64,000 nucleotides of DNA from Escherichia phage moskry: sequence record MN850651.1; one strand, given 5' to 3'. Within the stretch, counting starts at the first letter, position 1. Each line of letters starts with the position of its first letter. Positions 11,797 through 56,692 of the stretch are shown one piece after another. A model generated the notes under the pieces. It saw nothing but the letters and a program-made list of their open reading frames with translations, made no database searches and was not told where the DNA came from. Made by a program: the position numbers and the translations under genes.

Positions 11797-12897
11797 TTAC
11801 GCTGTGAAGATTTTATCCCACATCGCAACAACTGCATCTCGATTATACTTCTTCCATACTGCTTCAGCACGTTTAACTCGAGCTTCGTATGTGTCAGTGA
11901 ATTCTAATACAGCTTTTGTGTAAAGCGCAACTACTTCTTTCTTAGGAGTAGAGGAATCAATTTCTACACGCACAGTATCTGGGTCGTATTCGAATGTCGC
12001 ATGAGGATAATCCTTAAAAACTAACTGGATTACAGGGACACCTTTAGAGATGGCTTCAATAGAACTATTCTCTACCGTACCTGTGTCAGGACACGTATTA
12101 ATAAGTGCTTTAGCTGTTTTAAGACATTCCATAATTTCACTGTGTGGAGCATCAATAATAACAGGATATTTAGCTGGTGGTGCCCATTTGCTTGGACAAT
12201 AACCAATACCATTTTCGCCTAGTGCTTTAATCGCTTCAAGAGCAACATCAGTACGACGCATTTTAGTGTCATAACGTTGTGCACTAATAATCAGATCAGT
12301 CGCCGGAAGAACTTCAGGTTTCTCATTCAAACAAATAACCGGATAATCTTCGGCTTCAAACAACGGATTTGCTCGCCAATAATCATAATCGATTTTGTCA
12401 GTCAGACCTGAAGTCATATAACAATATTTGCGTTCAAATTCACGGAAGGCTTTAGTAGGAGCATAACTCTTACCGCCATTCTTATGAATTTGAATAGTTT
12501 GGTCCCAAATTTGAACAATGCCACGAGATACCGGTTCAAATGGTGTTGCCATAAAATTCTTGTGAACTTTAGAGAGACCTGCGTCTTTAATTGCCTGAAC
12601 GGTTAGTTTAGTCGGTTCCATAGTAACAACAAAATCGTATTCATGGATGCCGGCTAGTTCAACAATCTTACGAGCCATAGTATAACTCATACCTAGACTG
12701 AATTTAGTCAGATGACCAACAGGATGGTGTGTAACTTTCCAGTCACCAAACGTGTCGTTATCAAAGCCGATATAATCAATATCAGCACCGATGGACACAA
12801 GATATTTCAACACGTTCAAATGAACCGCTTCAAGACCACCTTGTACACGTTCTGGGTTAAATGGGACTGCGCGAGATGGGATAAACATAACTTTCAT
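11797..12897 (-). CDS. putative glycosyltransferase (GT-B-like), candidate DNA sugar transferase
   Basis: 366 aa; C-terminal ..ENSSIEAISKGVPVIQL.. resembles the E-x-G-x-PV(I/V) region of GT-B transferases; sits between rIIA.1 and gene 39 where T4 has gene 60/mobA. Fold assignment is inference only. Confidence 0.45.
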   Translation of the reverse strand: MKVMFIPSRAVPFNPERVQGGLEAVHLNVLKYLVSIGADIDYIGFDNDTFGDWKVTHHPVGHLTKFSLGMSYTMARKIVELAGIHEYDFVVTMEPTKLTVQAIKDAGLSKVHKNFMATPFEPVSRGIVQIWDQTIQIHKNGGKSYAPTKAFREFERKYCYMTSGLTDKIDYDYWRANPLFEAEDYPVICLNEKPEVLPATDLIISAQRYDTKMRRTDVALEAIKALGENGIGYCPSKWAPPAKYPVIIDAPHSEIMECLKTAKALINTCPDTGTVENSSIEAISKGVPVIQLVFKDYPHATFEYDPDTVRVEIDSSTPKKEVVALYTKAVLEFTDTYEARVKRAEAVWKKYNRDAVVAMWDKIFTA

Positions 12898-12923
12898 AAT
12901 TAAGCCTTATTAAAATTAAAATG

Positions 12924-12941
12924 AAGCTCCCGAAGGAGCTT
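12924..12941 (-). terminator. hairpin overlapping the gene 39 stop codon
   Basis: AAGCUCC-CGAA-GGAGCUU stem-loop followed by an AU-rich tract. Confidence 0.45.
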
Positions 12942-15243: not shown

Positions 15244-15245
15244 AA

Positions 15246-15425: not shown

Positions 15426-15856
15426 TATTGTTCCTTAAAGTGAGCTTTCAACATTTGATACAATGACCATGCCTGGTCATTATTTTCGATAGTAATCGTC
15501 ATCACAGGAAATTCAGACAATTCGTCAAGTTCACCAGAATCTTGCTCTTCAGACGCTTGATATGGATTTCCAACTTCATCAAAAAACTCTGCTTCATTCG
15601 TGGAGAGCCAGATAAAGTTTTCATCAAGGATATCACCGCCTGTTGCGTATCCAACCATGCCAGTAGATGTCACAATTTTAGTAGGACGACCAAGATGGTC
15701 AACATCTAATACTTTAAATGGTTCCATGCCAAGACGTCGTGCATAAATCCCATTATCAGTGTGGTCTTTAATAAACTCTTCTTGGGCACGTTTATCTTTA
15801 AATTGGTACCATGAATTAACGCGGAATTTATTAGCCATTAGTAAGTTTCCTTCCAA
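15425..15856 (-). CDS. hypothetical acidic protein (143 aa)
   Basis: ORF track. Confidence 0.5.
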
Positions 15857-16065
15857 TAAGTTGTACCGTTTTCAGTGATTTCACGGAAGATACCATAGAT
15901 AGGCATTTCATCACCGAGTTTTTCGTAAACGTAAACCACTTCAGTGTAGCATAAAAATTCAGTCCAGTTTTTCTGTACAACAACTAAATCAGGATTAAAC
16001 AGAACATCTTCAAACTCATCGATGTTTGAATCAGTAGTTACGTTTTTAATGATTTGACGTTTCAT
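15838..16065 (-). CDS. hypothetical protein (75 aa; track ORF extends to 16110)
   Basis: The track's 5' extension runs into the promoter; internal Met MKRQIIKNV.. is preceded by SD GAGGAG. Confidence 0.45.
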
Positions 16066-16093
16066 AATATTCTCCTCTTGTTTTGATAGGTCT

Positions 16094-16122
16094 ATAGTAT
16101 CATAGACCATAGTTGTTGTACA
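16094..16122 (-). promoter_or_regulatory. early promoter (TGTACA-N17-TACTAT) with dyad GGUCUAU/AUAGACC
   Basis: Read directly; followed by AGACCTATCAAAAC box. Confidence 0.5.
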
Positions 16123-16647
16123 TCATTTTAGCAAAATAAAATCAACTTGTTCTGCCAATGAACGTCTAAACATTAATTGACAACTTCCGAGGATGAAATC
16201 AGGTGCTTCATAGACCGCGATGTAGTATCCTTTAGCTTTCAAGAGTTCAACATCCACCTGGTCATCAAACCATGCATAAACCGCGTCAACACTTTCAAAT
16301 CCAAAATAGAACTCTTGAGCCCAATCTTCGTTCAATTCAAATGTGTGCTCAATTCTATAGTATCTTAAGATATTTTGTTCAAGGAGTTTGTCTTCATTTA
16401 CTGTAGGACGATTAGGGACATTATAGTTGTCGCCGTGATGGTAGAAGTTACCTGAGAGTATTCCATGTTTATCAAGGAATTCCCATGTTTCTTCAGAGTT
16501 GTCAGTGCCAGACCAACCGTATGGCGAACGAGGTTCTTTATTCCAAGAGGTTTCCCAAATTCTGACGGCTTTACCGTCTTTGATAGCAATTCCTGGTAAT
16601 GATTCACGTTGAGTACAAAAACTACGTTCTACGCGGTAAACTAACAT
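16123..16647 (-). CDS. hypothetical protein (174 aa)
   Basis: ORF track; SD GAGGAG 8 nt before ATG; own promoter. Confidence 0.5.
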   Translation of the reverse strand: MLVYRVERSFCTQRESLPGIAIKDGKAVRIWETSWNKEPRSPYGWSGTDNSEETWEFLDKHGILSGNFYHHGDNYNVPNRPTVNEDKLLEQNILRYYRIEHTFELNEDWAQEFYFGFESVDAVYAWFDDQVDVELLKAKGYYIAVYEAPDFILGSCQLMFRRSLAEQVDFILLK

Positions 16648-24879: not shown

Positions 24880-25401
24880 TTAGTAACCTCGGTCTTGGCG
24901 AGCGAAGTTTTCAGCATTCTTCAGGTAATACAGTTTAAAGATTTCTTCAGCGGAAAGACCCAGACCTTGGAACATATTCAGAACAAAGTGGAGGATATCA
25001 ATCATCTCGAATTTAATTTCAAGCTGGTCTTCAGGAGACAGTTCATCGATACGACGATTTCGATATTCAGCGTGTTGTGCCTTCCACGGCTTCCATACAC
25101 TGCTGGCGGCTTTTTCACCGTTGCTCATACCACCAAGTGAAGTCAGCAGTTCACGAAATTCATCATCAATATAATCTTTCTGATTACGCAGCCAATCAAC
25201 AACATCACCAGCAGTGGCCAATTCATCAGGATGTTTGTTATGTTCAGGCTTGTCATTTGCCAGACGAACCTGTAAAGATTTCTGCATATCAAGCATTACC
25301 TGCAGTGGGTCTTTATCTTCGTGAATCAGAGCATTAAAATAAGCTTCTTCTGCTTTATCAACACCAGAAATAAGTTGTGAACATTCGTTAAAGTGTGCCA
25401 T
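24880..25401 (-). CDS. 56: dCTP pyrophosphatase (dCTPase/dUTPase) gp56
   Basis: 173 aa from MAHFNECSQLISGVDKAEE..; ..DPLQVMLDMQ..LQVRLAN.., ..LEIKFEMIDILHFVLNMF.GLG.. match T4 gp56 from memory. Confidence 0.9.
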   Translation of the reverse strand: MAHFNECSQLISGVDKAEEAYFNALIHEDKDPLQVMLDMQKSLQVRLANDKPEHNKHPDELATAGDVVDWLRNQKDYIDDEFRELLTSLGGMSNGEKAASSVWKPWKAQHAEYRNRRIDELSPEDQLEIKFEMIDILHFVLNMFQGLGLSAEEIFKLYYLKNAENFARQDRGY

Positions 25402-32239: not shown

Positions 32240-33383
32240 GGTCGTTTTCTATATCTGCTGCAGACGGAGCATCAGAAGTTTTAACAGGAACTTTAGTTGT
32301 TGCTTTGCAATTAATAAGGTCGTTAACAGCGTCATCAACTTCTTTAATAGAAGAGATAGCACCTAGTTTATATTTAGTTTCAATTGCATCTCGGAAAGGT
32401 TTGTGTTTAAACAAAGGTCCCCAGAATTCTACACAATCAGTAGCTTTAGCACGCCATGATTTTTCTTCACGAATCATTTCACCTGTTTCTTCGTCAAGGA
32501 ATTCACGAGCATACCAACCGGCTTTAGGCTTAACTACAAAACCAATTTCAGTTGCCATTTCTAACAAGCCACTGAATGGGTCAATACCGCCATCAAAATT
32601 AACCGTGATTGGGAAAGTAGATTTCTCTTTAACTGTACGAGATTTTTCTGCTTTCAACGTGAAGTCATAACCGGTCAATTCTGTACCTTCTTTAACCTGA
32701 CGTTTAGAGATAAAGAATACAGTGTTAGCAGAGTAAAGAATACCTGTACCACCACCCATAATCTCTTTAGGATATAGTCCGCCGATTTCCATTGCTGTAT
32801 GGTTGATTGCAACACACGGAATATCTTTAATAGTCAGATAAGGAGTCACAATACGGAACAGAGATTTAAGTGCCTTAGCACGAGACATATCACCTACAAC
32901 TTTCTCGTTCAATGCATCTTCGGTTTCTTTCTTAGATGCAGTATTACCAATCGAGTCAATAAAGATAATAACTTTATCACCGCGTTCAATAGCGTCAAGC
33001 TGATTAGTCATATCGACTTTAAGTTGTTCGACAGACTGAATTGGTGTATGAACTACACGGTCTAAATCGACACCCATCGAACGGAAGTAAGATTCTGAAG
33101 CACCGAATTCTGAGTCATAAAACAAACAGATTGCATCTTTATATTTCTTCATATACGCTGCAACCATAGTTAGTCCAAACAATGTTTTAAAATGTTTAGA
33201 AGGTGCAGCAAAAATAGTCAAGCCTGATTGCAATCCTGCATTCAGAGCACCACCTAGTGCAATATTCAACATCGGAATACGAGTAGGGACTTCATCACGA
33301 TTATTAAACAGCTTAGACTTAGTCAAGTCTGCAGTCATTTTAGAAGTAGAAGCTTTAATCAGACGAGATTTTAAATCAGACAT
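32211..33383 (-). CDS. uvsX: UvsX RecA-like recombinase
   Basis: 390 aa; ..RIPMLNIALGG.., Walker A-like ..FAAPSKHFKT.., overall match to T4 UvsX. Confidence 0.95.
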   Translation of the reverse strand: MSDLKSRLIKASTSKMTADLTKSKLFNNRDEVPTRIPMLNIALGGALNAGLQSGLTIFAAPSKHFKTLFGLTMVAAYMKKYKDAICLFYDSEFGASESYFRSMGVDLDRVVHTPIQSVEQLKVDMTNQLDAIERGDKVIIFIDSIGNTASKKETEDALNEKVVGDMSRAKALKSLFRIVTPYLTIKDIPCVAINHTAMEIGGLYPKEIMGGGTGILYSANTVFFISKRQVKEGTELTGYDFTLKAEKSRTVKEKSTFPITVNFDGGIDPFSGLLEMATEIGFVVKPKAGWYAREFLDEETGEMIREEKSWRAKATDCVEFWGPLFKHKPFRDAIETKYKLGAISSIKEVDDAVNDLINCKATTKVPVKTSDAPSAADIENDLDEMEDFDE

Positions 33384-33481
33384 TGTATTTTTCCATAGGC
33401 ATCATTATATTTTACTCATGTTTAAAAGATAAGATGATTATATACTAAGGGTTATACAGCATTTAAAAATTTAAATGGCTC

Positions 33482-34030
33482 TTAACGAGCCCATTTAATG
33501 ATTTCTGTAATCAAATAATTACGTTCGCTTGCATTAAATCCTATAACTTTGTTAGCACCATCATGATTAAGTAATTGATACGTTTGGATTTTGTTATGAA
33601 TTGCAAACTCTTCAAAATATGAAATGACTGTATTAAAACCGAATGAAGACAAAGTAATAAGGTCGTCTTCAAAACTTTCAGTCATTTCGTTACGTGTTAA
33701 AATAATTGTGAACACATCATGGTTTTGGCAAAGACGAACATAATCCTGTTCATAAACATCAAGAACCGAGTCCGCATCTTGTCGAATACGTCCATAAACC
33801 CAGTTACTAATATATCCACGGTCTAACAGATAAATCTTAGTAGGGTCTAAATAATTCAACATCGTTTCGAAACAGCCGACTTCATTTCGAGACTTAACAT
33901 CGAAACGCCCATCAACTGTTCGTTTAGGGAAATCAATCTTTACATATCTTTCACTAATTTCCATTATGTCATTAATGAAAGTTGTTTTACCAGCATTATC
34001 CGGCCCGTCTACTAAAATAATTTTAGCCAT
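33482..34030 (-). CDS. P-loop kinase (nucleotide- or sugar-kinase-like), function unknown
   Basis: 182 aa; Walker A ..ILVDGPDNAGKTTF.. near the N-terminus, ..YLLDRGY.. downstream; not present at this position in T4. Confidence 0.5.
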   Translation of the reverse strand: MAKIILVDGPDNAGKTTFINDIMEISERYVKIDFPKRTVDGRFDVKSRNEVGCFETMLNYLDPTKIYLLDRGYISNWVYGRIRQDADSVLDVYEQDYVRLCQNHDVFTIILTRNEMTESFEDDLITLSSFGFNTVISYFEEFAIHNKIQTYQLLNHDGANKVIGFNASERNYLITEIIKWAR

Positions 34031-34031
34031 T

Positions 34032-34931
34032 TTATTCCTCGATTACGACATCTTCGTATTTAGGTATATTATACGGTGAAGAAATTAAAGCATTAAAGTA
34101 GATGAACTCACCAAGACCTGGATGGAATACTTCTTCAGGATTTTCGAAATATTGAATCTTCGGACGTCCTTTAAGAATTTGATAGTACTCAGTTTTAGTT
34201 GGATTAAAAATTCGAATCAGCGCTTCTTCAGGATACTTATTTCTGTCGAAGCTATTATTTGGATCGGTTATATAAAGCGGTTGACCTAATTGAATTGCGC
34301 ATTCAACCACTTGTTCAAAACGATAACACGGGTCACTAATTCGAAATGGATGAAAAATACCATCTAGATGAATAGGAGCCAAATCACCTACAAGACGCTG
34401 CATGATGGAAGGACGTATAACTTTCTGAGTTACGATAATCTTATTACCATCTGCACCTGCGTTAACCAGCACTTCTTTTTGACGTTCATTCAACACAGTA
34501 GTTTGAAGTGAACTATTAACTGACAACATATCGGTTTTTAAGAATTCGTCAATATAAAAACGTGGTTTATTAGGGTCTGCCGTGATATTGAAATTGAATT
34601 CTACATCAAAAGCGCCGTCATAACCAGTGATATCTGTTATTAGAAAATCACAATCATAATAAGCAATTAATGAATCAACCACAAATTCATTTTCAGACCA
34701 GAAATATTTACGAGTGTTATACGCGTTATCTTTATACCATAATGGAACAAACTTAAATTCCGGGAAAAGACGTTCACATTCTTTAATATCAGATGCATTA
34801 CGTGGATATGTAATCACATCACCTGGATTAGCACGGTGCAAATGAAGTTGGAAGTTGCCATCCTTAAGGATAGCATACTGTCCAGTTTCATAAGACCGCA
34901 TACTCAAAATAGGTACGCGGAAAATAGCCAT
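34032..34931 (-). CDS. hypothetical protein (299 aa) occupying the T4 beta-glucosyltransferase position
   Basis: ORF track; stop/start coupled to the kinase and hydroxymethylase genes; no motif I can assign with confidence. Confidence 0.5.
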   Translation of the reverse strand: MAIFRVPILSMRSYETGQYAILKDGNFQLHLHRANPGDVITYPRNASDIKECERLFPEFKFVPLWYKDNAYNTRKYFWSENEFVVDSLIAYYDCDFLITDITGYDGAFDVEFNFNITADPNKPRFYIDEFLKTDMLSVNSSLQTTVLNERQKEVLVNAGADGNKIIVTQKVIRPSIMQRLVGDLAPIHLDGIFHPFRISDPCYRFEQVVECAIQLGQPLYITDPNNSFDRNKYPEEALIRIFNPTKTEYYQILKGRPKIQYFENPEEVFHPGLGEFIYFNALISSPYNIPKYEDVVIEE

Positions 34932-35647
34932 TAGTCAAGAAATCCTTTAACATAATCAAAATCACGTTCAAACACATGGGCACTTACCATGGTATGAGTA
35001 TAATCACCAACTTCTACACCACATTCGTTAGCGATATAATGAAGTAATTTTCCTTGGAGATAAAAATCCAACTGCATAACAACAGCACAGTTCTGAGAAC
35101 GCATATGACAGTGGGTATAAAGCTTACCATCACGAATATAATAAGTCACTGAGTCAGTACATGGATATTCAAGTGTTTCGTCCGAATCAAGCAAAGCCTG
35201 ATCAGAACTTTCTAGAATTTGGAACACAACTCTTCGAGAGTTAGGTTTCTCTTTAAGTTCTTTTAGAAGAGCCGGTAATTGGGCCGCAATGCGAGGACCG
35301 TAGAAAGTGTTGAAGTTTGCAGGCAAAGCGTCTGATTTAGGTTTAGAAATAAATTTAGCGACATTAGGATATGCCTTAAACGCTTCTTCTGCATCAGTAC
35401 CACCAGAAATCATAAACTTCCAGAAGTCTTCGGCATATTCATAAGAGATGCGGTTAATACGTGGGTCGGTCATTTTGAATGATGATGGATTGTCAACAAC
35501 TACTGTCATGGACCCGATTTCATTACAACGTCCAATACGAGAATTAGTTACGAATTCGGGGTTTTCTAAAATTTCACGATTGACTGCTTTAAATGCGGTT
35601 TGAAAATCTGCGGCTTTGATATATTTCATTGTGTTATGTTTTCCCAT
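34931..35647 (-). CDS. 42: thymidylate-synthase-fold dNMP hydroxymethylase (gene-42-like, probably dCMP-specific)
   Basis: 238 aa; ..LEYPCTDSVTYYIRDGKLYTHCHMRSQNCAVVMQLDFY.. aligns with the TS/dCMP-HMase catalytic Cys segment (P-C..Y.(I/V)RD(G/K)K..(Q/N)..RS.D) with Asp at the base-specificity position. Confidence 0.65.
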   Translation of the reverse strand: MGKHNTMKYIKAADFQTAFKAVNREILENPEFVTNSRIGRCNEIGSMTVVVDNPSSFKMTDPRINRISYEYAEDFWKFMISGGTDAEEAFKAYPNVAKFISKPKSDALPANFNTFYGPRIAAQLPALLKELKEKPNSRRVVFQILESSDQALLDSDETLEYPCTDSVTYYIRDGKLYTHCHMRSQNCAVVMQLDFYLQGKLLHYIANECGVEVGDYTHTMVSAHVFERDFDYVKGFLD

Positions 35648-35689
35648 GTTTACCTCAATACAATTTATTATATACTCAATTCGTAAAGC

Positions 35690-35929
35690 TTATTTGAATT
35701 TCTTAGCAATGTTGATATAACGTAAAGCTTCAGAATCTATACTTCCAAGAACACTATGAAGGAATGCATCAGCGTAGTATTCTAGTTGAACAGGTTCTTT
35801 AATCGCTTTAGCCGCTTTAGTTTCAAACAGGCCCATAAGGGCCTTTTTAAGAATTTGTTCGTTGCTATTAATTTTTATGGTCAAAATCTCTTCATTAAGT
35901 TGGTGGTTAAAAGTTTTTCTAGAAATCAT
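35690..35929 (-). CDS. hypothetical protein (79 aa)
   Basis: ORF track; overlaps the upstream gene by 4 nt. Confidence 0.4.
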   Translation of the reverse strand: MISRKTFNHQLNEEILTIKINSNEQILKKALMGLFETKAAKAIKEPVQLEYYADAFLHSVLGSIDSEALRYINIAKKFK

Positions 35930-37104
35930 TCCGGGTACCTCAAAGCGTCGTCAGAGTTAGTTATATCAATAATAGATATAGAATTTTCTGATAACCCATT
36001 TTTAGATAACTGGCGTTTATAATATCTTTCACAATATGTACACGTCGTCCCGCAGATTTCATTAGCACAATCGAAATCTGGATGTCTGAACCACCTTTTT
36101 TCTAAAAAGCCGTCTAACAAAGAGGTTTCAATATTTACCGTATGTGAAAACTCGGTCTCATTTTCAAGAGTGAAAATGGTCTCTAAAGGCTTCCACAATT
36201 CCAACAAATTACCTTCAAACTTTTCAGAAGCATAAGCTTCAAGAACTTTCAAAATGTAGTCGGTGCTACCTGTACGTCCCGAAACTTTAAATTGAGTGAT
36301 ACCAATATCGTTATAAAGTTTCAAATCTTGGGGACGAACAAAACGAGTTCTCAACCAGTTAAATGGGTCTGTATCACGAGCTTTAATACAGTGCTGCATA
36401 GGATATCCGTTTAAGGATTTAGCATCATCAGCCGTAACATCAGTACTATGGAAAATATAGCAAGAGTCACGATAGCTACAATGTGTTGTATACCCTTTAC
36501 CAGCATTAGAACAGAACTCATTTACAAGAACTTCAAATATTATATTGTTCTTATTGCAAAACTCTGCTGCACGCTTCAGGAAAGAAACTGAACGGTTCTT
36601 ATGAATTCCACAGCAGACCTTTTTGATATTATATTGGTCATGCAAGTATTTGATTTGAGTTACAGCATCGACATGTAGAATTGTTGAAACTTCAATCTCA
36701 ATGTCTTTATTGACTTCACGAACAATTTCCATAACAACAGGGTTAGCGATAGTAATACGCCATACGCCTATTGACCAAAGATACTGAACATAATCCTGAA
36801 TAGCTTTCTTCTTCCACTCAACTAGTTCTCTTTTTGAACCAGGATTTATCGTGTTGAGTGTATAGTTAAAGCAAATACCTAATTCGTTACAACGTTTAAC
36901 GTAGTCTTCTAACATCTTTTTGTCAACGTCAGGAAGCCTAAAATCAGGTCTGGCTGCTACAAAAGCCATTTCTCTTGTAGAGCCGTATACTTCGTTTATC
37001 AAGCTATTAGGATAAGTTTTATTGAGCTCTACGATTTTATCAAGAAGAGCTAAATCAAAATTCGTTCCGATTTTAAAAGTATTCATTTTTTTTTTGCATC
37101 TCAC
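35926..37104 (-). CDS. Cys-rich protein of unknown function (392 aa); candidate metal-dependent enzyme/transferase
   Basis: ORF track; Cys clusters (..EFCSNAGKGYTTHCSYRDSCY.. and C-terminal ..CANEICGTTCTYC..); part of the sugar module. Confidence 0.5.
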   Translation of the reverse strand: MRCKKKMNTFKIGTNFDLALLDKIVELNKTYPNSLINEVYGSTREMAFVAARPDFRLPDVDKKMLEDYVKRCNELGICFNYTLNTINPGSKRELVEWKKKAIQDYVQYLWSIGVWRITIANPVVMEIVREVNKDIEIEVSTILHVDAVTQIKYLHDQYNIKKVCCGIHKNRSVSFLKRAAEFCNKNNIIFEVLVNEFCSNAGKGYTTHCSYRDSCYIFHSTDVTADDAKSLNGYPMQHCIKARDTDPFNWLRTRFVRPQDLKLYNDIGITQFKVSGRTGSTDYILKVLEAYASEKFEGNLLELWKPLETIFTLENETEFSHTVNIETSLLDGFLEKRWFRHPDFDCANEICGTTCTYCERYYKRQLSKNGLSENSISIIDITNSDDALRYPE

Positions 37105-37145
37105 GTTAATTGATGCGATGGTTTTTGCAGGTCTTACTTAAATTA

Positions 37146-37547
37146 TTATAGATTAGGTTTATATGATTTAAATGTTTCGAATTCGCCTTTATTCATAAGA
37201 GCTTTGAATTCGTCAGGACGCATAGCTTTGTCGTCGATAATCCAATCATATACTGGTTTATGTGTTAGCAAATTATGGTACTTCAAGCCAATGTTTGCTA
37301 AGTTCTGAATCAGACTTGGGAGAATGTCAATTGCTATACGACCAGGACCTACTGACTTCATACCGCGAGCAGTGTAAAGCGTTATGGTATGCCCTGCATC
37401 ATACAGGGCATTAATGGCAGACACCATTTCGACGTCTGGTTTGAAGTTCACGTAATCACGATTGTTATTCCACTCTGTTATACAATCATCGACATCAAAA
37501 CAAAGATTAAGCATGTTTTCTACACGGTGCATTAGATTCGTTCCCAT
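37146..37547 (-). CDS. HAD-superfamily phosphatase (small, cap-less)
   Basis: 133 aa; motif I ..LCFDVDDCIT.., motif II ..TLYTARG.., motif IV ..WIIDDK.. Confidence 0.55.
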   Translation of the reverse strand: MGTNLMHRVENMLNLCFDVDDCITEWNNNRDYVNFKPDVEMVSAINALYDAGHTITLYTARGMKSVGPGRIAIDILPSLIQNLANIGLKYHNLLTHKPVYDWIIDDKAMRPDEFKALMNKGEFETFKSYKPNL

Positions 37548-39217
37548 TGATGAGTGATATCGCCACCAATTGGGCGATAAGAAACACCAGTTTCTTTATC
37601 AGTTAGTACCCATTTACCAGGATTTTTTGTAATCAGAGTAGCCGTTACAGGTTCTGCTACGTCATAACTAATAGAGCCGTCTTGAAGTACACGGCCCATG
37701 TTACGTAATTGCTTAGTCAGAAGTTCCATACCTTTATAATATGCAGCTACCGCTTTAAGTGGATTATTCTTGAAATAACCACCTAATGCAATCCAGATAA
37801 TTGCCACTGCCAAATGATGATACTCGTTAAACGAACTCATCTTTCCATATTTGTAAACTAATGGATTGATGTTAATAGTCACATTACAAGTTGTTTCATC
37901 AATAGTAAACTGTCCCCAGGTCGGATTAGCGTTGAATTCATCATAACCTGAAACAGCATAAAGCACTTTAGCTTCATCGTACAATTTTGGCCCGTAAATC
38001 TTGGTTTCCCCAAAATATCCACGAGGGTCGATAAACTTGACTTCGCCGTTATCAGTAATCATAGTATTACTGAAGTTCGGGTCACCATGAATAACAGAGT
38101 ACTGTCCCTGAGAACGGTTATGATAACGAATAAGGTGTTCTAAAGCTTGTTTCAGCATTGGCTTCAGACGCCCAATCTTAGTGTAGTTCACATGGGTGAT
38201 TTTACCAAATGAATCAATCAATGGTTGAATGCTTTCACAACGATCAATAACTTTCGTATAGAATTCTTTAGTGAAATCACGGCGAACAGTTTCAGGACTT
38301 ACAAAATAAGTGTCTGTGCTGAATTTCAGTGCATCTAAAATTGCATCAACAATTTGTGGACGAGCAAGACTTGATTTGGATTTAATATATTCAAATGCCG
38401 GCTTACCTTTAATGCGTTCCATTTCAAAGTTATTTTCATTAACAGAAACTAACTGAGGAACTGAATCTGATTTCACTTTAAGATACCATGAAATCTCATC
38501 TTTCTGAAGAGCTCGACCCTGTTCGGTTAATGCGAATTTAGTTACAGTTTCTTCACCAATTTCAACTGCATTAAAACTACGATTAAGTTCACGAACTTCA
38601 TGAGCTTTTTCAAGTTTAGGCATATCACCTAAATCAATTAGATTCATAAGCTCTGATTTATTGAATGCGCTGCCGTAAAGGAATTCTACGAAATCGCGTC
38701 CTTTGCAGTATTCATGAATTTCCTCATCGGTAGAACCCATATAGAATTCCCAGTCTTTGAACTGATAAATTCCTACAACATTACCACCTGTTGAACCTAC
38801 GTTAGTGATATTTTCACCGTCGAAATTATATCGACATTCGTCACCCTTAACATAGATTGCGTTAACATTCCAAGACCATGAACCAAAATCGGGAATAATA
38901 TCACACCAGTTAACAATTACATTATGGCCGTCTAAATCTTTGTGTAATTTAGCAAGAGCATAAGCAGAACCGTACGCTTCATCAACTGTACGAATAGTCA
39001 CATTGAACCCTTCTTGCTCACAATAAGCTCGAACAGTTTCAGCAAATTTTGAATGAACTACTACAATAATTTCATCTGCGCCAAGGTCAGAATAAATTGT
39101 ATACAAATTGCTCAGAATAGTGTCTTGTTTATAGTTAACAAGCACCTTAGGAATATGATGCGTTATTGGATATAAACGAGTCGCCAGTCCAGCACCAAGA
39201 ATAACAGCTTTTTTCAT
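37532..39217 (-). CDS. bifunctional sugar-1-phosphate nucleotidyltransferase (N) / APH-choline-kinase-like anomeric sugar kinase (C)
   Basis: 561 aa; N-terminus MKKAVILGAGLATRLYPITHHIPKVLV (G-x-G-x-R-L-x-P-x-T..PK-x-L nucleotidyltransferase signature); C-terminal ..VIHGDPNFSNTMIT..VKFIDPRGYFG.. (H-G-D-x-x-x-N and I-D-x-x kinase motifs). Confidence 0.7.
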   Translation of the reverse strand: MKKAVILGAGLATRLYPITHHIPKVLVNYKQDTILSNLYTIYSDLGADEIIVVVHSKFAETVRAYCEQEGFNVTIRTVDEAYGSAYALAKLHKDLDGHNVIVNWCDIIPDFGSWSWNVNAIYVKGDECRYNFDGENITNVGSTGGNVVGIYQFKDWEFYMGSTDEEIHEYCKGRDFVEFLYGSAFNKSELMNLIDLGDMPKLEKAHEVRELNRSFNAVEIGEETVTKFALTEQGRALQKDEISWYLKVKSDSVPQLVSVNENNFEMERIKGKPAFEYIKSKSSLARPQIVDAILDALKFSTDTYFVSPETVRRDFTKEFYTKVIDRCESIQPLIDSFGKITHVNYTKIGRLKPMLKQALEHLIRYHNRSQGQYSVIHGDPNFSNTMITDNGEVKFIDPRGYFGETKIYGPKLYDEAKVLYAVSGYDEFNANPTWGQFTIDETTCNVTININPLVYKYGKMSSFNEYHHLAVAIIWIALGGYFKNNPLKAVAAYYKGMELLTKQLRNMGRVLQDGSISYDVAEPVTATLITKNPGKWVLTDKETGVSYRPIGGDITHQWERI

Positions 39218-39245
39218 GTTGAAGTCCTCATTGGTAAGTAGGAGT

Positions 39246-39270
39246 ATTGTACACTATTCTAGTTAAAGCA
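39246..39270 (-). promoter_or_regulatory. candidate MotA-dependent middle promoter (MotA box TGCTTTA, 12 nt, -10 TACAAT) upstream of the nucleotidyltransferase/kinase gene
   Basis: Read on - strand: GAATGCTTTAAC..TACAAT about 30 nt upstream of the ATG. Confidence 0.4.
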
Positions 39271-39398
39271 TTCATACTTTGCTTGTAGTCCAATCATAAT
39301 CCATCCAATTACAAGTGTTGGAATCATTACTGGAGCCGTTAAGCTCCAGTAGATAGTCATGACAAGCATCAATAGTAAAAGTCCTATTGTTATTGCTT

Positions 39399-40034
39399 TC
39401 ATTGTTCGCCTCGTAACATGGCACCTAGTGCACCGCCTGGATGGAACTTAAGGAAGTCATTAGAGGTAAATCCACGCTCAGACGAAAGGTTGATAGCGAA
39501 CGTATCGATAAGCGCTAACAACAATGTAGTGGACATAGTCGGAGCTAAAGAGTTCTCGTCAACTTCTACCGCGATACCGGTACAGAACGTATAATCAAAA
39601 AGAGCTTCGTATTCTTGTGGAATGTCAGGGTTACAATGCAACAGAATCTGTTTGACGTTCGGGCGAATCATTTTAAGATGCTTAGCCACGCCTATCATTT
39701 CTTCAGTTTTACCAGAACGACTAATATGAATCAACACATCATTAGGCGCAATGAATCCTGCATCACCGTGAGAATAATGCCCAGTGTTCAAGTACATACT
39801 AGGGATACCGAGTGAAGCAAATGTCTCAGAAGCTTTAGTTGCAATATTAGCATTCTTACCAACACCTGTAATAATTACTCGGCTTTCATAATTACTAAGT
39901 CCCGGGCGTCGAAGAGTTTCTAGAATAGCATTATAACGAGCAGGGTTTTGACTAATTACTTTGGCCATAGCGGCCAAAGAAGAAGCTTGTTTTATGATTG
40001 CGTCAATAGCGATAGTAATAGGAGTAGTTTTCAT
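39399..40034 (-). CDS. SIS-domain sugar-phosphate isomerase (arabinose-5-phosphate isomerase-like, no CBS domains)
   Basis: 211 aa; ..ITGVGKNANIATKASETFASLGIPS.., ..HISRSGKTEE.. typical SIS (KpsF/GutQ/KdsD-type) motifs. Confidence 0.65.
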   Translation of the reverse strand: MKTTPITIAIDAIIKQASSLAAMAKVISQNPARYNAILETLRRPGLSNYESRVIITGVGKNANIATKASETFASLGIPSMYLNTGHYSHGDAGFIAPNDVLIHISRSGKTEEMIGVAKHLKMIRPNVKQILLHCNPDIPQEYEALFDYTFCTGIAVEVDENSLAPTMSTTLLLALIDTFAINLSSERGFTSNDFLKFHPGGALGAMLRGEQ

Positions 40035-40074
40035 ATTTCTCTCATTTAATTAGTTTACCGTCCATGTCATTATA

Positions 40075-42786
40075 TCAAAAATCGAACATATCGAACAGAG
40101 ATGCTTTCTTCTCGTAATCGAGTTTCGCCGCTGATGTGAATCCTTCAAGTGGTTTAATAAATGTCTTCTCAAGGAGAACCGTGTAGTCCATCCAATGAAG
40201 TACATCATCTTTGATTAAATCAGTGATTTCAGTACCAGAAGGCCATGCGATACATTTATCACCGAATGGGTTTCCTTCACGTAAAGGCAGAACATATACT
40301 TTTTCACCTTCTACAACTTGTGGTGCATCGATATTACCTTTGATAGCCCGGTTATACGTCAGAATTCCACGAATATGGAACGGGCATTTAGGACCAGGGA
40401 ATCCACCTACATCATATTTAGCAATGTTATTCGCAGAAGATACCGACGCGATGCTAATATAATTCAATTGACGGAATTCTTTTTCAAACTCTTTAAAATA
40501 TTCTTGTAATGATTCTTCACCTTCTTGAAGCATACGACGAATACATTCCTTAAGAGCTTTCTGTACTGCTTTAGGGGTTGAAGATTTCTGTGTTTCGAGA
40601 CCCATGATTTTAAGCTTAGGTTCAGCGTATCTAGTTCCTTCCATATCCCACACGTTTAATGCATAACGTTTCTTACCAGTCCAAAATCCACCAATACCTT
40701 TAGAACCAAGCGGAGGTCCAGCGATAGCTTCTCGGTCCATGAACATCAAATGTTGCTTATTATTCATGTATTCGCACATTTCACGGAAACCTCTATCAAT
40801 AGCAGGTTCCATACGTTCACGAGCGAACTTATCTAAGAAGTCTACCCAATGGTTAGTATCGCGGAATTTAGATTCACCAACCTTATCAATAATTTTATCT
40901 GCAGATACGTAAATGGAGTCTGTATCACCATATAGAACGAAAGCTTCACCTTCTGTACCACAAACTTCATTCAGATATTCATTAACTTTACGTTCAATCC
41001 ACTGTAAAGCCATTTGACCAAATGTTGTGATTGCAGTAGCATTACGCAAATCGTAATAACGGAACCAAACGTTGCCAAGTGCACCATAAAGTGAGTTGAT
41101 AAGCAATTTACGGTTAATTTGGGCAGTCATACCTGCAACTTCAGTACGTTGAGCTCTAAACAACATTTCATTAAGAGATTTAGCAGACAACTTTTTAATC
41201 TTTTCTTTAATCTCATCGCTAAAGTCGAAACGATAATCAACATCTAATGGTTCGTCAACAGAAAGATTAGGATTATGCAACGCCTCTTTAATTATTTCAC
41301 CATTACGTTGAGCCGCAAGCATATAACCTTTATGTTCTTTACGTTGATTAAAGACTTTAGTGATTTCAGTTGGAACTACACCATCACGGTCTTTATAATA
41401 CATCATGCCGTTAGGAGAGCAACTGTACACATCAGAAGGACGTTCAGCAACAGCGTTAATATAATCATGCAATGGAGCTACTTTAAACGTTCCTGCTATT
41501 GTTTCTGGGCTAATATTCACTTGGCGAATAATACTTGGATACAGAGATGTAAGGTCGAAACTCATTACATATTTGTATCGATTTGGAATAGGTTCCTTAA
41601 CAAAAGCGCCAGGATAAGGTTGAACTGGATGCGAACGACCTTGTGGAATCACCTTGTTCTGCTCTTTAAGGCTATTGAAAATAATAGCGTCCCAAGTTTT
41701 AATTGGACTGAACACAGATTGAATCTGAATTTTAGCATAATACCCCATGTCCAAACTCAAGTTAATGAACTGGCGTTTAGCATCAATTTGCAATACACGA
41801 TACACGTCGATAATGTTATAAGAAATATATCGTTGGTGATTGCTTTCACGAAGCTTAGAAATAGGGCCGTCATATTTCAGTTTACCAACGTTCAATTCAA
41901 ATTCTGAAATGTAATCCAGAGAATATGACGGTTGGTTCGTGAAAGAGAACTTTTTGTAAAGGTCAATGTAATCAAGAACAGAGATACCGAACAATGTAAT
42001 GATTTCACGAGAACCATACATGTTTTCGATAACTTTAACACGAGTTTTACGATGTGGTGATAAACGTTTCGCAGTAGATTCGCCAAAAATATTCTTGATT
42101 CGGTTATACACATATGGAATATCAAATGACTCAACGTTCCATCCAGTCAAAATGACAGGAGTTTTCTGTTGCCAGAAGTTGAGATATTCCATCAATAATT
42201 CTTTTTCATTATCAAACGGCATATAAACGATTTTGTCGATAATTTCGGATGGAACTTCATCACCACCTTGTTCTTGAAGCTTAGCTGCAATTTCGATAGA
42301 CCATTCTTCTACATTACCATATGGAGAATTCAATAGATCAAATACGTAGAACCTGTCGTCAATTGAGTCATAATGGGTGATGGCATCAATTGGATGTTTT
42401 GCTTGTGACGGCTCAGGGAACCCATCCGGAGATGTTACTTCGATGTCGAAGTTAGCCACACGAATTTTTGTATGGTCGTATTTGATTTCATAGTTATAAG
42501 TGTCAGACAAATACGCCAATTTGAAATCGTCCATGCCAAGTGCTTCAAGTCCGATATCTTCCATGCGTTTAATCCATTGGGAGGCATCACGCATATTAGC
42601 GAACAACTTACGAGTACACGGCTTACCGTAGATATCGAAATATTTCGTAGCCTGACTTTCTGGACAATGAGCAAACAGTGATGGTTTATATTCTACTTCA
42701 CGAGTACGTTCACGGCCATTAGAATCGATGTAACGTTCAAAAATTGAATCACCAATCTGTTCAACCGTTAAGTAAAATTCTTTCAT
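40075..42786 (-). CDS. 43: DNA polymerase gp43 (family B, RB69-type)
   Basis: 903 aa; N-terminus MKEFYLTVEQIGDSIFERYIDSNGRERTREVEYKPSLFAHCPE.. and exo/pol motifs (..FDIEV.., ..YGDTDS..) match the RB69 polymerase sequence as I remember it. Confidence 0.97.
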   Translation of the reverse strand: MKEFYLTVEQIGDSIFERYIDSNGRERTREVEYKPSLFAHCPESQATKYFDIYGKPCTRKLFANMRDASQWIKRMEDIGLEALGMDDFKLAYLSDTYNYEIKYDHTKIRVANFDIEVTSPDGFPEPSQAKHPIDAITHYDSIDDRFYVFDLLNSPYGNVEEWSIEIAAKLQEQGGDEVPSEIIDKIVYMPFDNEKELLMEYLNFWQQKTPVILTGWNVESFDIPYVYNRIKNIFGESTAKRLSPHRKTRVKVIENMYGSREIITLFGISVLDYIDLYKKFSFTNQPSYSLDYISEFELNVGKLKYDGPISKLRESNHQRYISYNIIDVYRVLQIDAKRQFINLSLDMGYYAKIQIQSVFSPIKTWDAIIFNSLKEQNKVIPQGRSHPVQPYPGAFVKEPIPNRYKYVMSFDLTSLYPSIIRQVNISPETIAGTFKVAPLHDYINAVAERPSDVYSCSPNGMMYYKDRDGVVPTEITKVFNQRKEHKGYMLAAQRNGEIIKEALHNPNLSVDEPLDVDYRFDFSDEIKEKIKKLSAKSLNEMLFRAQRTEVAGMTAQINRKLLINSLYGALGNVWFRYYDLRNATAITTFGQMALQWIERKVNEYLNEVCGTEGEAFVLYGDTDSIYVSADKIIDKVGESKFRDTNHWVDFLDKFARERMEPAIDRGFREMCEYMNNKQHLMFMDREAIAGPPLGSKGIGGFWTGKKRYALNVWDMEGTRYAEPKLKIMGLETQKSSTPKAVQKALKECIRRMLQEGEESLQEYFKEFEKEFRQLNYISIASVSSANNIAKYDVGGFPGPKCPFHIRGILTYNRAIKGNIDAPQVVEGEKVYVLPLREGNPFGDKCIAWPSGTEITDLIKDDVLHWMDYTVLLEKTFIKPLEGFTSAAKLDYEKKASLFDMFDF

Positions 42787-54407: not shown

Positions 54408-54878
54408 TTAATCATGTTTCCACACCCCATCTGTATTTGACCAAAGTCGCTGATTATCTGATCCTCGCCACAGCTTTTTAGTCGGAAGATTTTTCTCATA
54501 CTTCCCATCAATAATAACATCAACATATTTAAGCATTTCTAGTTGTTTAATATCTTCAAACTTATATCCTGTCCACAACCAAATGCTTTTATTAGGATAA
54601 AGATTTTTTACTGTTTGAGCAATGCGATGAATAACATCTCGGTTATCAGGATAGAGAGGGTCTCCTCCTGTTATAGTTAATCCTTCTATATAATCATTAT
54701 TCAAACATTCAATTAATTGTTCTAGTGTCTCTCCAGTGAATGGAGCACCATTTCTAGCGTTCCATGTTGATTTATTATAACACCCTTCACATTTATGCAA
54801 ACAACCTGTAACGAAAAGAACGACCCTACAACCAGGGCCATTCACAAAATCGCAAGGATAAAATCTATCATAATTCAT
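54408..54878 (-). CDS. nrdG: anaerobic ribonucleotide reductase activating protein NrdG (radical SAM)
   Basis: 156 aa; CxxxCxxC (..GCLHKCEGCYN..), ..GLTITGGDP..; overlaps the nrdD stop. Confidence 0.9.
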   Translation of the reverse strand: MNYDRFYPCDFVNGPGCRVVLFVTGCLHKCEGCYNKSTWNARNGAPFTGETLEQLIECLNNDYIEGLTITGGDPLYPDNRDVIHRIAQTVKNLYPNKSIWLWTGYKFEDIKQLEMLKYVDVIIDGKYEKNLPTKKLWRGSDNQRLWSNTDGVWKHD

Positions 54879-56692
54879 TGGTGTTTAACCCTATGCATGA
54901 TTTCTTTATTTTTGCCTAGATTAAATCCGCGTTCGTTCGGGTTTCCAAGATAACCGCATGTTCTTCTTATAGTGTTCATCTTTTTAGGATCAGTTTCTCC
55001 GCAAACTGAACAAACAAATCCATTTTCGGTAGGAGTCATTTCATGAGTACTTCCACATGTAAAACATTTATCTACTGGCATATTAACACCAAAATAATCT
55101 AAATGTTGTGCAGCATAATCCCAGACAGCCTCAAGTCCCTTTAAATTGTTTTTCATATCTGGAAGTTCAACATAAGAAATGTGACCACCTGTCGCAATGA
55201 AATGATATGGCGCTTCACGAGAAATCTTTTCAAACGGAGTAATATTTTCTTCTACTGAAACATGGAAACTATTAGTGTACCAGCCTTTATCAGTGACATC
55301 CTTTACACTTCCATATTTTTCTGTATCAAGTTTACAGAAGCGATAACAAAGGTTTTCAGCAGGAGTGGAATATAAACTAAAAGCAAATCCGGTTCTTTCA
55401 GTCCACTGTTTAAGATGAGCATTCATTTTAGTTAAAATTTCTTGTCCAATATCACGACCGACAAGAATATTCAATTCGTGAATACCAATGTATCCTAGGG
55501 ACACTGAACTTCTACCGTTTTTAAATAACTCAATTATATCGTCATCAGGTTTAAGACGAACCCCGAATGCACCTTCTTGGTAAAGAATAGGAGCAACAGT
55601 CGCTTTAACTCCTTTTAAGGAACTAATTCTACACATCAAAGCTTCAAAACACAGGTCCATTCGTTCATTGAACAATTCGGCAAATTTCTGTTCATTGAAT
55701 TGTGTTCCAATATAAGAATCTAACGCAATACGAGGAAGATTCAGTGTTACAACGCCAAGATTATTGCGTCCATCAAGAATTTCATTGCCAGTTGAATCTT
55801 TCCATACGCTCAAGAAACTACGGCAGCCCATTGGAGAAACAGGAACTGAAGAACCGGTAATAGCTTTATTATTCTTAACCGAAATAATATCAGGATACAT
55901 TCTTTTGCTTGCGCACTCTAGAGCAAGCTGCTTAATATCATAGTTCGGATCATCTTTATAAAGATTAACACCTTCTTCAACAAACATAACAAGCTTAGGG
56001 AAAATAGGAGTTATTCCATCACGACCAAGACCTTTAATGCGGTTTTTAAGAATTGCTTTCTGAATCATTCGTTCAGTCCAGTCGGTTCCTGTACCAAATG
56101 TAATTGTTACAAAAGGAGTCTGTCCGTTTGAACTAAAGAGAGTATTTACTTCATATTCATAAGCTTGGAATGCATCGTATACGTCTTTTTCTGTTTTAGA
56201 TTGAGCATAATTCAACGCATCAGCGATTTGCCATTTTTCTGCATCTTCAACATGTTTAGCGTATGTGCGTTTAACATAAGGAGAAAGAACTTTATCGACA
56301 TTCGCAAATGTAGTTCCGCCATATTGGTGTGAAGCAACTTGTGCGGTAATTTGTGCCATAATTGCAGTAGCAACGCCAATAGATTTAGGCGTTTCAATTT
56401 GAGCATTGCCTAATTTAAATCCATTCTCAAGCATCCCCTTTAAATCGACTAAACAGCAATTGGTAAACGGAAGAGCAGGAGAATAATCAATATCATGCAT
56501 GTGAATGATTCCGCTTTCATGCGCATGCATAATAAAAGACGGGACCATATTTTTGGCAATGTGCTTAGACACAATACCAGCCATAAGGTCCCGTTGAGTT
56601 GGAAAAACACGAGAATCTTTATTAGCATTCTCGTTCAAAAGATCTTTATTAGTTTTATAAATTAATCCTTCAATTTCTTTTTCAATTTTCAT
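54875..56692 (-). CDS. nrdD: anaerobic ribonucleotide reductase large subunit NrdD (class III), intronless
   Basis: 605 aa uninterrupted; C-terminal Zn ribbon (CFTCGS..CSVCG) and glycyl-radical motif ..RRTCGYLG.. Confidence 0.95.
   Translation of the reverse strand: MKIEKEIEGLIYKTNKDLLNENANKDSRVFPTQRDLMAGIVSKHIAKNMVPSFIMHAHESGIIHMHDIDYSPALPFTNCCLVDLKGMLENGFKLGNAQIETPKSIGVATAIMAQITAQVASHQYGGTTFANVDKVLSPYVKRTYAKHVEDAEKWQIADALNYAQSKTEKDVYDAFQAYEYEVNTLFSSNGQTPFVTITFGTGTDWTERMIQKAILKNRIKGLGRDGITPIFPKLVMFVEEGVNLYKDDPNYDIKQLALECASKRMYPDIISVKNNKAITGSSVPVSPMGCRSFLSVWKDSTGNEILDGRNNLGVVTLNLPRIALDSYIGTQFNEQKFAELFNERMDLCFEALMCRISSLKGVKATVAPILYQEGAFGVRLKPDDDIIELFKNGRSSVSLGYIGIHELNILVGRDIGQEILTKMNAHLKQWTERTGFAFSLYSTPAENLCYRFCKLDTEKYGSVKDVTDKGWYTNSFHVSVEENITPFEKISREAPYHFIATGGHISYVELPDMKNNLKGLEAVWDYAAQHLDYFGVNMPVDKCFTCGSTHEMTPTENGFVCSVCGETDPKKMNTIRRTCGYLGNPNERGFNLGKNKEIMHRVKHQ

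Follow-up and report, generated by a model that had tools for sequence, protein, structure and literature searches.

A U32-family protein in the arabinosyl-5-hydroxycytosine gene cluster of an RB69-like phage: a candidate oxygen-independent pyrimidine hydroxylase

A cysteine-rich U32 protein in a DNA-hypermodification cluster

The window analysed here, a 64,000-nucleotide stretch of Escherichia phage moskry (sequence record MN850651.1), carries on its minus strand an open reading frame (ORF) at 35926-37104 whose cysteine-rich product belongs to the U32 protein family and is encoded within a cluster of DNA-hypermodification genes. The phage belongs to the RB69-like, T4-type phages (Mosigvirus): over 6.7 kb around the gene its DNA is 97.8% identical to that of RB69 and at most 98.9% identical to that of other coliphages, and the gene itself is the orthologue of RB69 gp50 (RB69p050), labelled 'peptidase' in its record. 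Started at GTG, the ORF would encode 392 amino acids (aa), but the true start is most likely the ATG at 37086, which would give a protein of 386 aa, since the 31 aligned homologues all share the internal MNTFK as their N-terminus and no obvious ribosome-binding site precedes the GTG. Just upstream of this likely ATG, a tract of some nine A residues (37087-37096, minus strand) separates it from a weak GAG; according to one proposal, homopolymer tracts serve as contingency loci in phages (bioRxiv 10.1101/2025.10.21.683753).

The cluster genes are all on the minus strand, located between DNA polymerase gp43 and UvsX. On one side of the U32 gene stand the genes whose RB69 counterparts make UDP-arabinose (PMC13326640): a HAD-type phosphatase (gp51, AfhF-like; 37146..37547; phrog_1238 E 5e-43), a 561-aa bifunctional nucleotidyltransferase and sugar kinase (gp52:53, AfhE-like; 37532..39217; Pfam NTP_transferase with weak kinase-family matches, phrog_4098), and an arabinose-5-phosphate isomerase with a SIS domain (gp55; 39399..40034; Pfam SIS E 2e-10, phrog_5670 E 2e-116). 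On the other side are a 79-aa ORF orthologous to RB69 gp49 (35690..35929; no Pfam match), which is translationally coupled to the U32 gene by a four-nucleotide overlap with its stop, a thymidylate-synthase (TS) homologue (gp48; 34931..35647; Pfam Thymidylat_synt E 2e-15), a 299-aa glycosyltransferase termed 'arabinosyltransferase 1' (gp46:47; 34032..34931; phrog_3891 E 4e-155; PMC13326640 Table 1), and, as the last cluster gene, a thymidylate-kinase-like nucleotide kinase (gp45; 33482..34030; phrog_761 E 6e-45; PMC13326640 Table 1). A first-pass annotation of the window had placed the gene correctly, between the HAD phosphatase and, past the 79-aa ORF, the TS homologue.

The chemistry of this cluster has recently been established in RB69, whose DNA carries arabinosylated 5-hydroxycytosine (5hoC) and not arabinosyl-hydroxymethylcytosine (Lee et al., NAR 2026, PMC13326640). 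RB69 gp48 is a flavin-binding, O2-dependent 5-hydroxy-dCMP synthase, with label from 18O2 entering the product, and gp46:47 and gp3 are putative arabinosyltransferases (PMC13326640). The first-pass annotation had called the TS-type neighbour a hydroxymethylase and had named hydroxymethylcytosine DNA as the likely substrate of the U32 protein; both proposals give way to the experimentally shown 5-hydroxy-dCMP synthase and to 5hoC as the modified base (PMC13326640). Three further functions encoded on the minus strand outside the cluster bear on the pathway: a homologue of gp3, the putative second (beta) arabinosyltransferase (11800..12897; tblastn 98.6% identity over 366 aa; PMC13326640 Table 1); the dCTPase gp56 (24883..25401; tblastn 99.4% to RB69 gp56, Pfam dUTPase_2); and the anaerobic ribonucleotide reductase NrdD (54878-56692; Pfam NRDD E 5e-171, Gly_radical) with its radical-SAM activase NrdG (54411-54878; Pfam Fer4_12 E 9e-49, Radical_SAM). 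Because the dCTPase removes dCTP, the phage needs modified dCMP to be supplied. NrdD and NrdG show that it is equipped for replication in anoxic hosts and that it has one step of nucleotide metabolism in both an O2-dependent and an O2-independent form. The RB69 study lists gp50 only in its Table 1, as 'Sugar or heterocycle reductase' from fold matches to PDB entry 5d88; its text never discusses the protein, does not contain the words U32, peptidase, chorismate or Fe-S, and describes an Acinetobacter phage DLP3 cluster with no gp50 counterpart (PMC13326640).

The product of the moskry gene matches Pfam PF01136 (Peptidase_U32) at about aa 100-292 with 42.2 bits against a gathering score of 22.4 (E 7.7e-11), although the first-pass annotation had found no motif that could be placed; no other domain was found in Pfam, and PF01136 is already annotated on nearly all homologues of the phage protein. 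A fold search, which that annotation had suggested as a check, returned as its top match the U32 protein Mk0906 (PDB 5d88), the sole solved U32 structure, followed by TIM barrels that include methylenetetrahydrofolate reductases and sugar-phosphate enzymes; no glycosyltransferase fold appeared, and a sequence search of the PDB gave no match. When a profile of the phage family was aligned to the four Escherichia coli U32 paralogues with hhalign, RlhA was the best match (E 3.4e-5 over 201 columns), followed by TrhP (2e-3, N-terminal part only) and UbiU (9e-3), with no match to UbiV. The phage protein is a separate, phage-specific U32 subfamily (phrog_5757) outside the RlhA, TrhP, UbiU and UbiV orthologous groups.

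The functions of these paralogues frame what the phage protein might do. RlhA is needed for 5-hydroxycytidine at position 2501 of 23S rRNA (ho5C2501) and TrhP for 5-hydroxyuridine at position 34 of tRNA (ho5U34); both are prephenate-dependent, TrhP-dependent formation of ho5U is O2-free, and TrhP acts alongside the O2-dependent TrhO (PMC6599085). UbiU and UbiV are [4Fe-4S] proteins for the anaerobic hydroxylation of ubiquinone, and most U32 proteins bind a [4Fe-4S] cluster (PMC6747719). Prephenate is the shown oxygen donor for UbiU/UbiV and has been proposed as a general donor for U32 proteins (PMC10990095). Residues essential for function are E161, C169 and C176 in RlhA and E162, C170 and C177 in TrhP (PMC6599085). 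In the hhalign alignment C209 and C215 of the phage protein correspond to RlhA C169 and C176, and E196 to RlhA E161; all three are invariant in a set of 82 non-identical homologues with overall identity of 40-87%. The assignment of the glutamate carries a caveat, as an 11-residue hairpin insertion with the invariant C198 makes E191, itself invariant in a 32-sequence alignment, an alternative equivalent of RlhA E161; the spacing of C209 and C215 is x5, as against x6 in the RlhA/TrhP motif.

Both cysteine clusters pointed out in the first-pass annotation are present as described, the internal C198-x10-C209-x5-C215 and the C-terminal C346-x4-C351-x3-C355-x2-C358, and they are invariant across the 82 homologues. 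Overall, 13 of the 386 residues are cysteines, a content above chance (3.4%, against a median of 1.15% in 45 long minus-strand ORFs of the window); the other cysteine-rich ORFs of the window are nrdG and nrdD. Cysteines C198, C209, C215, C239, C346, C351, C355 and C358 are conserved in every homologue, and C164 and C183 are each kept in 81 of the 82. The Zn or Fe-S site that the annotation suggested is thus very likely present, given this invariance and the use of conserved cysteines by U32 proteins to bind [4Fe-4S] (PMC6747719). More speculatively, the C-terminal Cys4 motif (aa 346-358) may hold a second cluster or a zinc site. The U32 membership, the conservation of the catalytic-motif residues and cysteines, and the genomic associations described below are direct observations.

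The label 'peptidase U32', inherited in GenBank and in PHROGs, would make the product a protease or collagenase. That name goes back to a few old reports, and we know of no catalytic residues defined for U32 'peptidases'. The genetically characterised members of the family are all tied to hydroxylation (PMC6599085, PMC6747719, PMC10990095), while the Fe-S cysteine set, the gene context and the prephenate-supplying neighbours described below have no link to proteolysis, and we regard a proteolytic function as hardly credible.

Glycosyltransferase and shikimate-pathway neighbours

Past the tight T4-like clade, whose members share 76-87% identity, the protein database contains hundreds of homologues of about 360 aa at 46-59% identity. 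The contigs of these homologues resemble phage modules for replication and nucleotide metabolism, on which DnaE polymerase, primase, SSB, dCMP deaminase, ThyX, kinases and UDG-like proteins are encoded. We drew 47 further loci from IMG/VR, annotated all loci with a panel of the cluster proteins, and de-duplicated them at 90% U32 identity, which left 31 distant clusters. The commonest neighbour of the U32 subfamily in these distant phages is a homologue of the phrog_3891 glycosyltransferase, found 1.0-5.7 kb from U32 in 22 of the 31 clusters, and in 18 of the 22 whose flanks reach 5 kb or more on each side. The protein encoded just upstream of U32 at three loci (L014, L016 and L017) is a homologue of the 299-aa arabinosyltransferase of the window, as is a nearby 329-aa protein at a fourth (L003); all four match by blastp (E 4e-9 to 7e-17) and match phrog_3891 (E 3e-14 to 4e-29). 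A nucleotidyltransferase/kinase occurs in 12 of the 31 clusters and an arabinose-5-phosphate isomerase in 9, and a TS-type 5-hydroxy-dCMP synthase is found within ±10 kb of U32 in only one, even when the TS profile is applied at E<=10. The conserved core is the U32 protein together with the glycosyltransferase. A glycosyltransferase of the phrog_3891 family needs a base hydroxyl, and U32 is the sole candidate in view (±10 kb) to provide it in most of the distant phages.

At one of these loci (L016) the U32 gene lies between the phrog_3891 glycosyltransferase and a TET-associated glycosyltransferase (TAGT; PF20691, above threshold). The block, at 5777-14179 of a 61-kb contig from an uncultured phage, comprises Gly_transf_sug, the phrog_3891 glycosyltransferase, U32, TAGT together with another paralogue of TAGT type, a dUTPase/dCTP deaminase and, in addition, a UDP-galactopyranose mutase, and no TET/JBP or TS homologue is in view there; we regard it as a candidate system for galactofuranosylated hydroxypyrimidine DNA.

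These pairings bear on the proposal of the first-pass annotation that the gene encodes the DNA-modifying step, either sugar transfer to DNA or further elaboration of the sugar. Part of this stands: tight synteny and the recurrent glycosyltransferase pairing place the gene in a DNA-hypermodification cluster. As for sugar transfer, the location inside a sugar and modification cluster is what one would expect of a glycosyltransferase or a sugar-elaborating enzyme, but the protein has the TIM-barrel U32 fold, neither a GT-A nor a GT-B fold, and no glycosyltransferase match in Pfam, PHROG or NCBIfam; the proteins with glycosyltransferase folds are gp46:47 and gp3 (PMC13326640); and this cluster lacks the U32 gene in Acinetobacter and Dhakavirus phages. 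Sugar elaboration fares no better, as U32 also recurs where phages encode the glycosyltransferase yet lack genes for arabinose synthesis. We consider either role most improbable.

A further recurrent neighbour of the U32 gene encodes an enzyme of prephenate formation. The small gene just downstream of U32 in Klebsiella phage KLB31 (Kanagawavirus) is a type II chorismate mutase (Pfam CM_2 E 1.3e-9), and that of Erwinia phage Virsaitis27 (Winklervirus) is likewise a chorismate mutase (CM_2 E 1.7e-11, above threshold); both lie directly between the U32 and TS genes, where the window has its 79-aa ORF. A tblastn search places this phage chorismate mutase at the U32/TS locus of 56 phage records, which without exception come from T4-like phages of enterics or Shewanella, and in most related phage genera it lies directly beside the U32 gene. 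Farther afield, a stand-alone chorismate mutase follows U32 directly on contigs of about 195-294 kb (L053, L054, L057, L058, L061 and L063) and in a Romboutsia metagenome-assembled genome (MAG); fusions of DAHP synthase and chorismate mutase lie near distant U32 genes in L046, L048/L049, L051 and L060, and DAHP synthase alone in L003 and L035. Altogether, chorismate mutase and/or DAHP synthase stands beside U32 in 8 of the 31 distant clusters.

DAHP synthase catalyses the first step of the shikimate pathway, and its gene would not usually be expected as an auxiliary metabolic gene in a virus. In these uncultured phages it lies 1-1.7 kb from U32 (L049:7290-8354, L046:8399-9430, L051:8323-9384, L060:11082-12200 and L003:9145-9891), and in some of them the enzyme has chorismate mutase as a C-terminal domain. 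Given the availability of arabinose-5-phosphate, we considered whether the DAHP_synth_1 neighbours might instead be KDO8P synthases and rejected this, as the NCBIfam DAHP synthase models match at E 1e-47 to 3e-70 and those for KDO8P synthase at 4e-14 to 3e-17; two of the neighbours compared in this way carry a fused chorismate mutase domain. A chorismate mutase that feeds a carboxy-SAM pathway of the CmoA/CmoX type (PMC12783734) was likewise rejected, as no CmoA- or CmoB-like ORF is present in the window or in about 60 loci.

The 79-aa ORF is not a cryptic chorismate mutase: it has no CM_2 or other Pfam match, hhalign to a profile of the phage chorismate mutases gives a probability of 0.2%, and Yersinia phage TG1 has a gp49-like ORF and a chorismate mutase side by side, which argues against their equivalence. 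RB69-like phages would therefore rely on host prephenate. Counterparts of gp49 are confined to Mosigvirus, Yersinia phages (TG1, fHe-Yen9-01), Pectobacterium phages and Serratia phage 92A1, and the one in HY126 is cut to 40 aa (L068:5218-5340). The N-terminal motif of gp49 (..INHKLNEEL..) resembles the stretch by which the 114-aa chorismate mutase of Winklervirus and EcS1 is extended at its N-terminus (L030 and L032, at about 11143-11511), a likeness that hints at a fusion or remnant relationship.

The shikimate-pathway neighbours also weigh on two other functions that might be assigned to the U32 protein. A redox helper or tailoring enzyme, which might keep the TS-type synthase supplied with reduced flavin or carry out a reduction or oxidation of the attached sugar or base, would agree with the label 'Sugar or heterocycle reductase' in PMC13326640 Table 1, with the methylenetetrahydrofolate reductases and sugar-phosphate TIM barrels among the lower fold matches, and with the suitability of Fe-S clusters for electron transfer. 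Such a reductase should, however, co-occur with the TS homologue or with the arabinose genes, and it leaves chorismate mutase and DAHP synthase unexplained; we consider it unlikely. A U32 hydroxylase acting on a host molecule, as a takeover or auxiliary metabolic function that restores or boosts ho5U34 of tRNA, ho5C2501 of rRNA or anaerobic ubiquinone synthesis, would account for chorismate mutase equally well, and the characterised U32 functions all concern RNA or quinones (PMC6599085, PMC10990095). Yet the phage protein has none of the C-terminal, RNA-binding extensions found in the longer RlhA (653 aa) and in TrhP (453 aa), the gene always lies within modules for DNA modification, nucleotides or replication (with the DNA glycosyltransferase family, dCMP deaminase, kinases and polymerases as neighbours), and phmmer searches of all ORFs found no UbiT- or UbiV-like partner. 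A host target is accordingly a rather improbable explanation to our minds.

A candidate oxygen-independent route to 5-hydroxycytosine

The distribution of the U32 gene suggests a connection with the oxygen supply of the host. It occurs in 221 cultured-phage records, mostly from phages of Escherichia (136), Klebsiella (26) and Shigella (14), with others from Serratia, Proteus, Yersinia, Enterobacter, Providencia, Edwardsiella and seven rarer name groups; among the sampled rows no non-enteric host other than Shewanella appears. The TS homologue occurs in 373 records, which include 57 Acinetobacter and 20 Rhizobium phages without U32, and U32 is absent from phages of strict aerobes. Acinetobacter phage Morttis (L013), for example, has the whole arabinose, TS and glycosyltransferase cluster without U32, chorismate mutase or gp49. 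The host bias of NrdD in phages is similar to that of U32. Among species-representative genomes the U32 subfamily is present in 10 records, mostly MAGs assigned to obligate anaerobes (Oscillospiraceae, Romboutsia, Erysipelotrichales, Tannerella) and including one isolate genome, Phocaeicola faecalis; the binning of phage contigs into MAGs is unreliable, so that this assignment to anaerobes is supportive only. Several of the 10 records carry chorismate mutase and the glycosyltransferase as well. The accessory distribution of U32 tracks host oxygen physiology.

We propose, with moderate confidence and on the basis of homology and gene neighbourhood, that the U32 protein is an O2-independent, prephenate-dependent pyrimidine C5-hydroxylase that would supply 5hoC under anoxia. 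The presence of NrdD/NrdG and the dCTPase, combined with a sole characterised 5hoC route that needs O2, implies a need for an anaerobic route. The enzyme would hydroxylate C5 of cytosine without O2, with prephenate as oxygen donor. The most economical substrate would be dCMP, giving 5-hydroxy-dCMP, since where dCTP is destroyed a back-up route helps only at the nucleotide level; action on DNA is also possible, because RlhA and TrhP act on polymers. The 5-hydroxy-dCMP would then be phosphorylated, built into DNA, and arabinosylated by the neighbouring glycosyltransferase. Prephenate would come from host PheA/TyrA in RB69-like phages and from the phage chorismate mutase in most related genera. 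Activity, substrate, oxygen donor and anoxic role are all deduced in this way, and together they would make gp50 the anaerobic twin of the adjacent O2- and flavin-dependent gp48, much as TrhP is paired with TrhO, UbiU/UbiV with UbiI/H/F, and phage NrdDG with NrdAB.

Several observations weigh against this proposal. Aerobically, gp48 together with a kinase is enough for 5hoC in DNA (PMC13326640), and Mosigvirus, the clade of this phage, has no chorismate mutase. Others concern distribution: the E. coli phage VR5 (Dhakavirus; L012) has the full cluster without U32, chorismate mutase or gp49, and Shigella phage SP18, a close relative, has NrdD. The absence of U32 from VR5 and the presence of NrdD in SP18 together mean that U32 is accessory, and not indispensable, in enteric hosts. 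The uncultured-phage loci were viewed within ±10 kb, and a TS-type enzyme may lie elsewhere in these genomes. The relation to characterised U32 proteins is also distant: the similarity to RlhA is remote (hhalign probability 72%); single-sequence phmmer searches with RlhA, TrhP, UbiU, UbiV and UbiT against all ORFs of the window and the loci gave no match, so that the link to RlhA, TrhP, UbiU and UbiV exists at profile level only; and NCBIfam equivalog cut-offs are far from reached, the sole match being UbiU with 18.4 bits against 440. The canonical motif CX6CX15CX3/4C is incomplete in the phage protein, which has the first two cysteines but A228 and N232 in place of the third and fourth (RlhA C192 and C196). 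Other invariant cysteines, C198 with C239 or C164 with C183, would have to complete the predicted cluster and could do so; ligand positions differ in UbiU and UbiV, the UbiU motif being CX6CX16CX38C (PMC6747719). Finally, the function of the family as a whole rests on genetics, as no U32 protein has yet been shown to hydroxylate in vitro (PMC10990095).

Comparison with known systems clarifies what the proposal would and would not share with each. RlhA (YdcP) has the U32 domain, is the best E. coli profile match, has counterparts of its E161, C169 and C176 that are invariant in the phage family, and would share the chemistry proposed for the phage, prephenate-dependent C5 hydroxylation of cytosine; but it is a 653-aa protein with C-terminal domains that binds the ribosome, whereas the remotely related phage protein has 386 aa, a different C-terminal Cys4 module and not the third and fourth canonical cysteines, and its proposed substrate is a deoxynucleotide or DNA. 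TrhP (YegQ) and TrhO provide the precedent of an O2-independent U32 route beside an enzyme of unrelated origin that needs O2 and serves the same hydroxylation at pyrimidine C5, an arrangement proposed here for gp50 and gp48; the match to TrhP is limited to the N-terminal part (hhalign E 2e-3), the substrate class differs, and the phage pair are neighbours in one cluster. UbiU and UbiV are U32 Fe-S proteins that form a heterodimer with two [4Fe-4S] clusters, maybe echoed by the two invariant cysteine groups of the phage protein, and UbiU has its third and fourth ligands at non-canonical positions; unlike the phage protein, they act on a lipid quinone with UbiT as partner, the phage has no UbiT-like gene, and the sequence similarity is weak. 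The phage 5-hydroxy-dCMP synthase (RB69 gp48, DLP3 gp80 and the HY126 homologue) has the product and pathway proposed for U32 and is encoded next to it, but has the thymidylate synthase fold, uses flavin and O2 and is experimentally proven, while the role of U32 is deduced. The phage TET/JBP and TAGT systems similarly pair a base-oxidising enzyme with a DNA glycosyltransferase, and L016 has a TAGT directly downstream of U32; TET/JBP enzymes depend on Fe(II), 2-oxoglutarate and O2 and act on the 5-methyl group in DNA, whereas U32 is proposed to act on the ring C5-H independently of O2.

If the U32 protein is indeed such a hydroxylase, it would extend the prephenate chemistry of U32 proteins, which is still poorly understood, from RNA and quinones to viral DNA. 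It would close a gap in the arabinosyl-5-hydroxycytosine pathway of phages that have gut hosts, encode an anaerobic reductase and destroy dCTP, and whose known hydroxylase depends on O2. As a small single-polypeptide enzyme with a simple nucleotide substrate, it may offer the tractable in-vitro system that the U32 field is missing. DNA modification status under anoxia affects evasion of restriction and CRISPR, and thereby the performance of phage therapy in the gut. Extended to the distant phages, we would put at close to an even chance a broader scheme in which the U32 protein and the phrog_3891 glycosyltransferase form a widespread O2-independent pathway by which phages of anoxic habitats make glycosylated 5-hydroxypyrimidine DNA, with shikimate-pathway genes feeding U32, in which this subfamily would be the first of the U32 hydroxylases to act on DNA precursors or DNA, with prephenate as an organic oxygen donor, and in which enteric T4-like phages have stacked the TS-type enzyme on top to cover the whole oxygen range. 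If the hydroxylase proposal holds, the U32 and phrog_3891 glycosyltransferase signature, with or without chorismate mutase or DAHP synthase, would predict hypermodified DNA in many uncultured phages of anoxic environments, jumbo phages included, and would explain why phages carry shikimate-pathway genes.

Our literature search, which did not extend to He et al. 2026 and Mahler et al. 2025, found no link of phage U32 proteins, prephenate or chorismate mutase to DNA hypermodification. The He et al. 2026 study (Nat Chem Biol) reportedly dissected the HY126 pathway, including a homologue of the phage 5-hydroxy-dCMP synthase. The U32 gene is not a topic of either the Thomas 2018 paper or the Thanatos paper, and the GenBank record of HY126 does not name these genes. 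The gene, its 'U32 peptidase' label and the 2026 pathway are thus already known, and what we add is the proposal of a U32 hydroxylase for viral DNA with a phage-encoded supply of its oxygen donor.

Further features of the cluster and of distant relatives

The 299-aa and 561-aa genes of the cluster are whole in the window, while the RB69 reference record splits each of them (ORF046c/047c and ORF052c/053c); the intact genes agree with the view of Lee et al. (PMC13326640) that sequencing errors account for the splits in RB69. Over 33300-40200, promoter-like and terminator-like sites are no commoner than in shuffled sequence, and we confine any operon claim to the shared orientation and the overlapping stop and start codons. 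Across T4-like phages the U32 module forms a discrete insert flanked by the HAD phosphatase gene and that of the TS homologue, and in some genera a Seg homing endonuclease adjoins it (Virsaitis27 ORF39, phiR1-RT g051 and PEi26).

Two arrangements among the distant loci differ from the pairing with a phrog_3891 glycosyltransferase. On a 466-kb megaphage-like contig and its relatives (L002 and L004-L006; U32 at 8001-9086), a dCMP deaminase gene is followed by U32 and then by a gene for a conserved protein of about 250 aa with weak SDR/epimerase similarity, with no phrog_3891 glycosyltransferase within 8 kb; these phages may use a different downstream chemistry or a uracil-based modification. A Bacillota MAG contig (L072) carries two U32 paralogues 4 kb apart, at 9989-11101 and 15230-16363, the second matching at E 5e-25, a pair that recalls the two-subunit arrangement of UbiU and UbiV.

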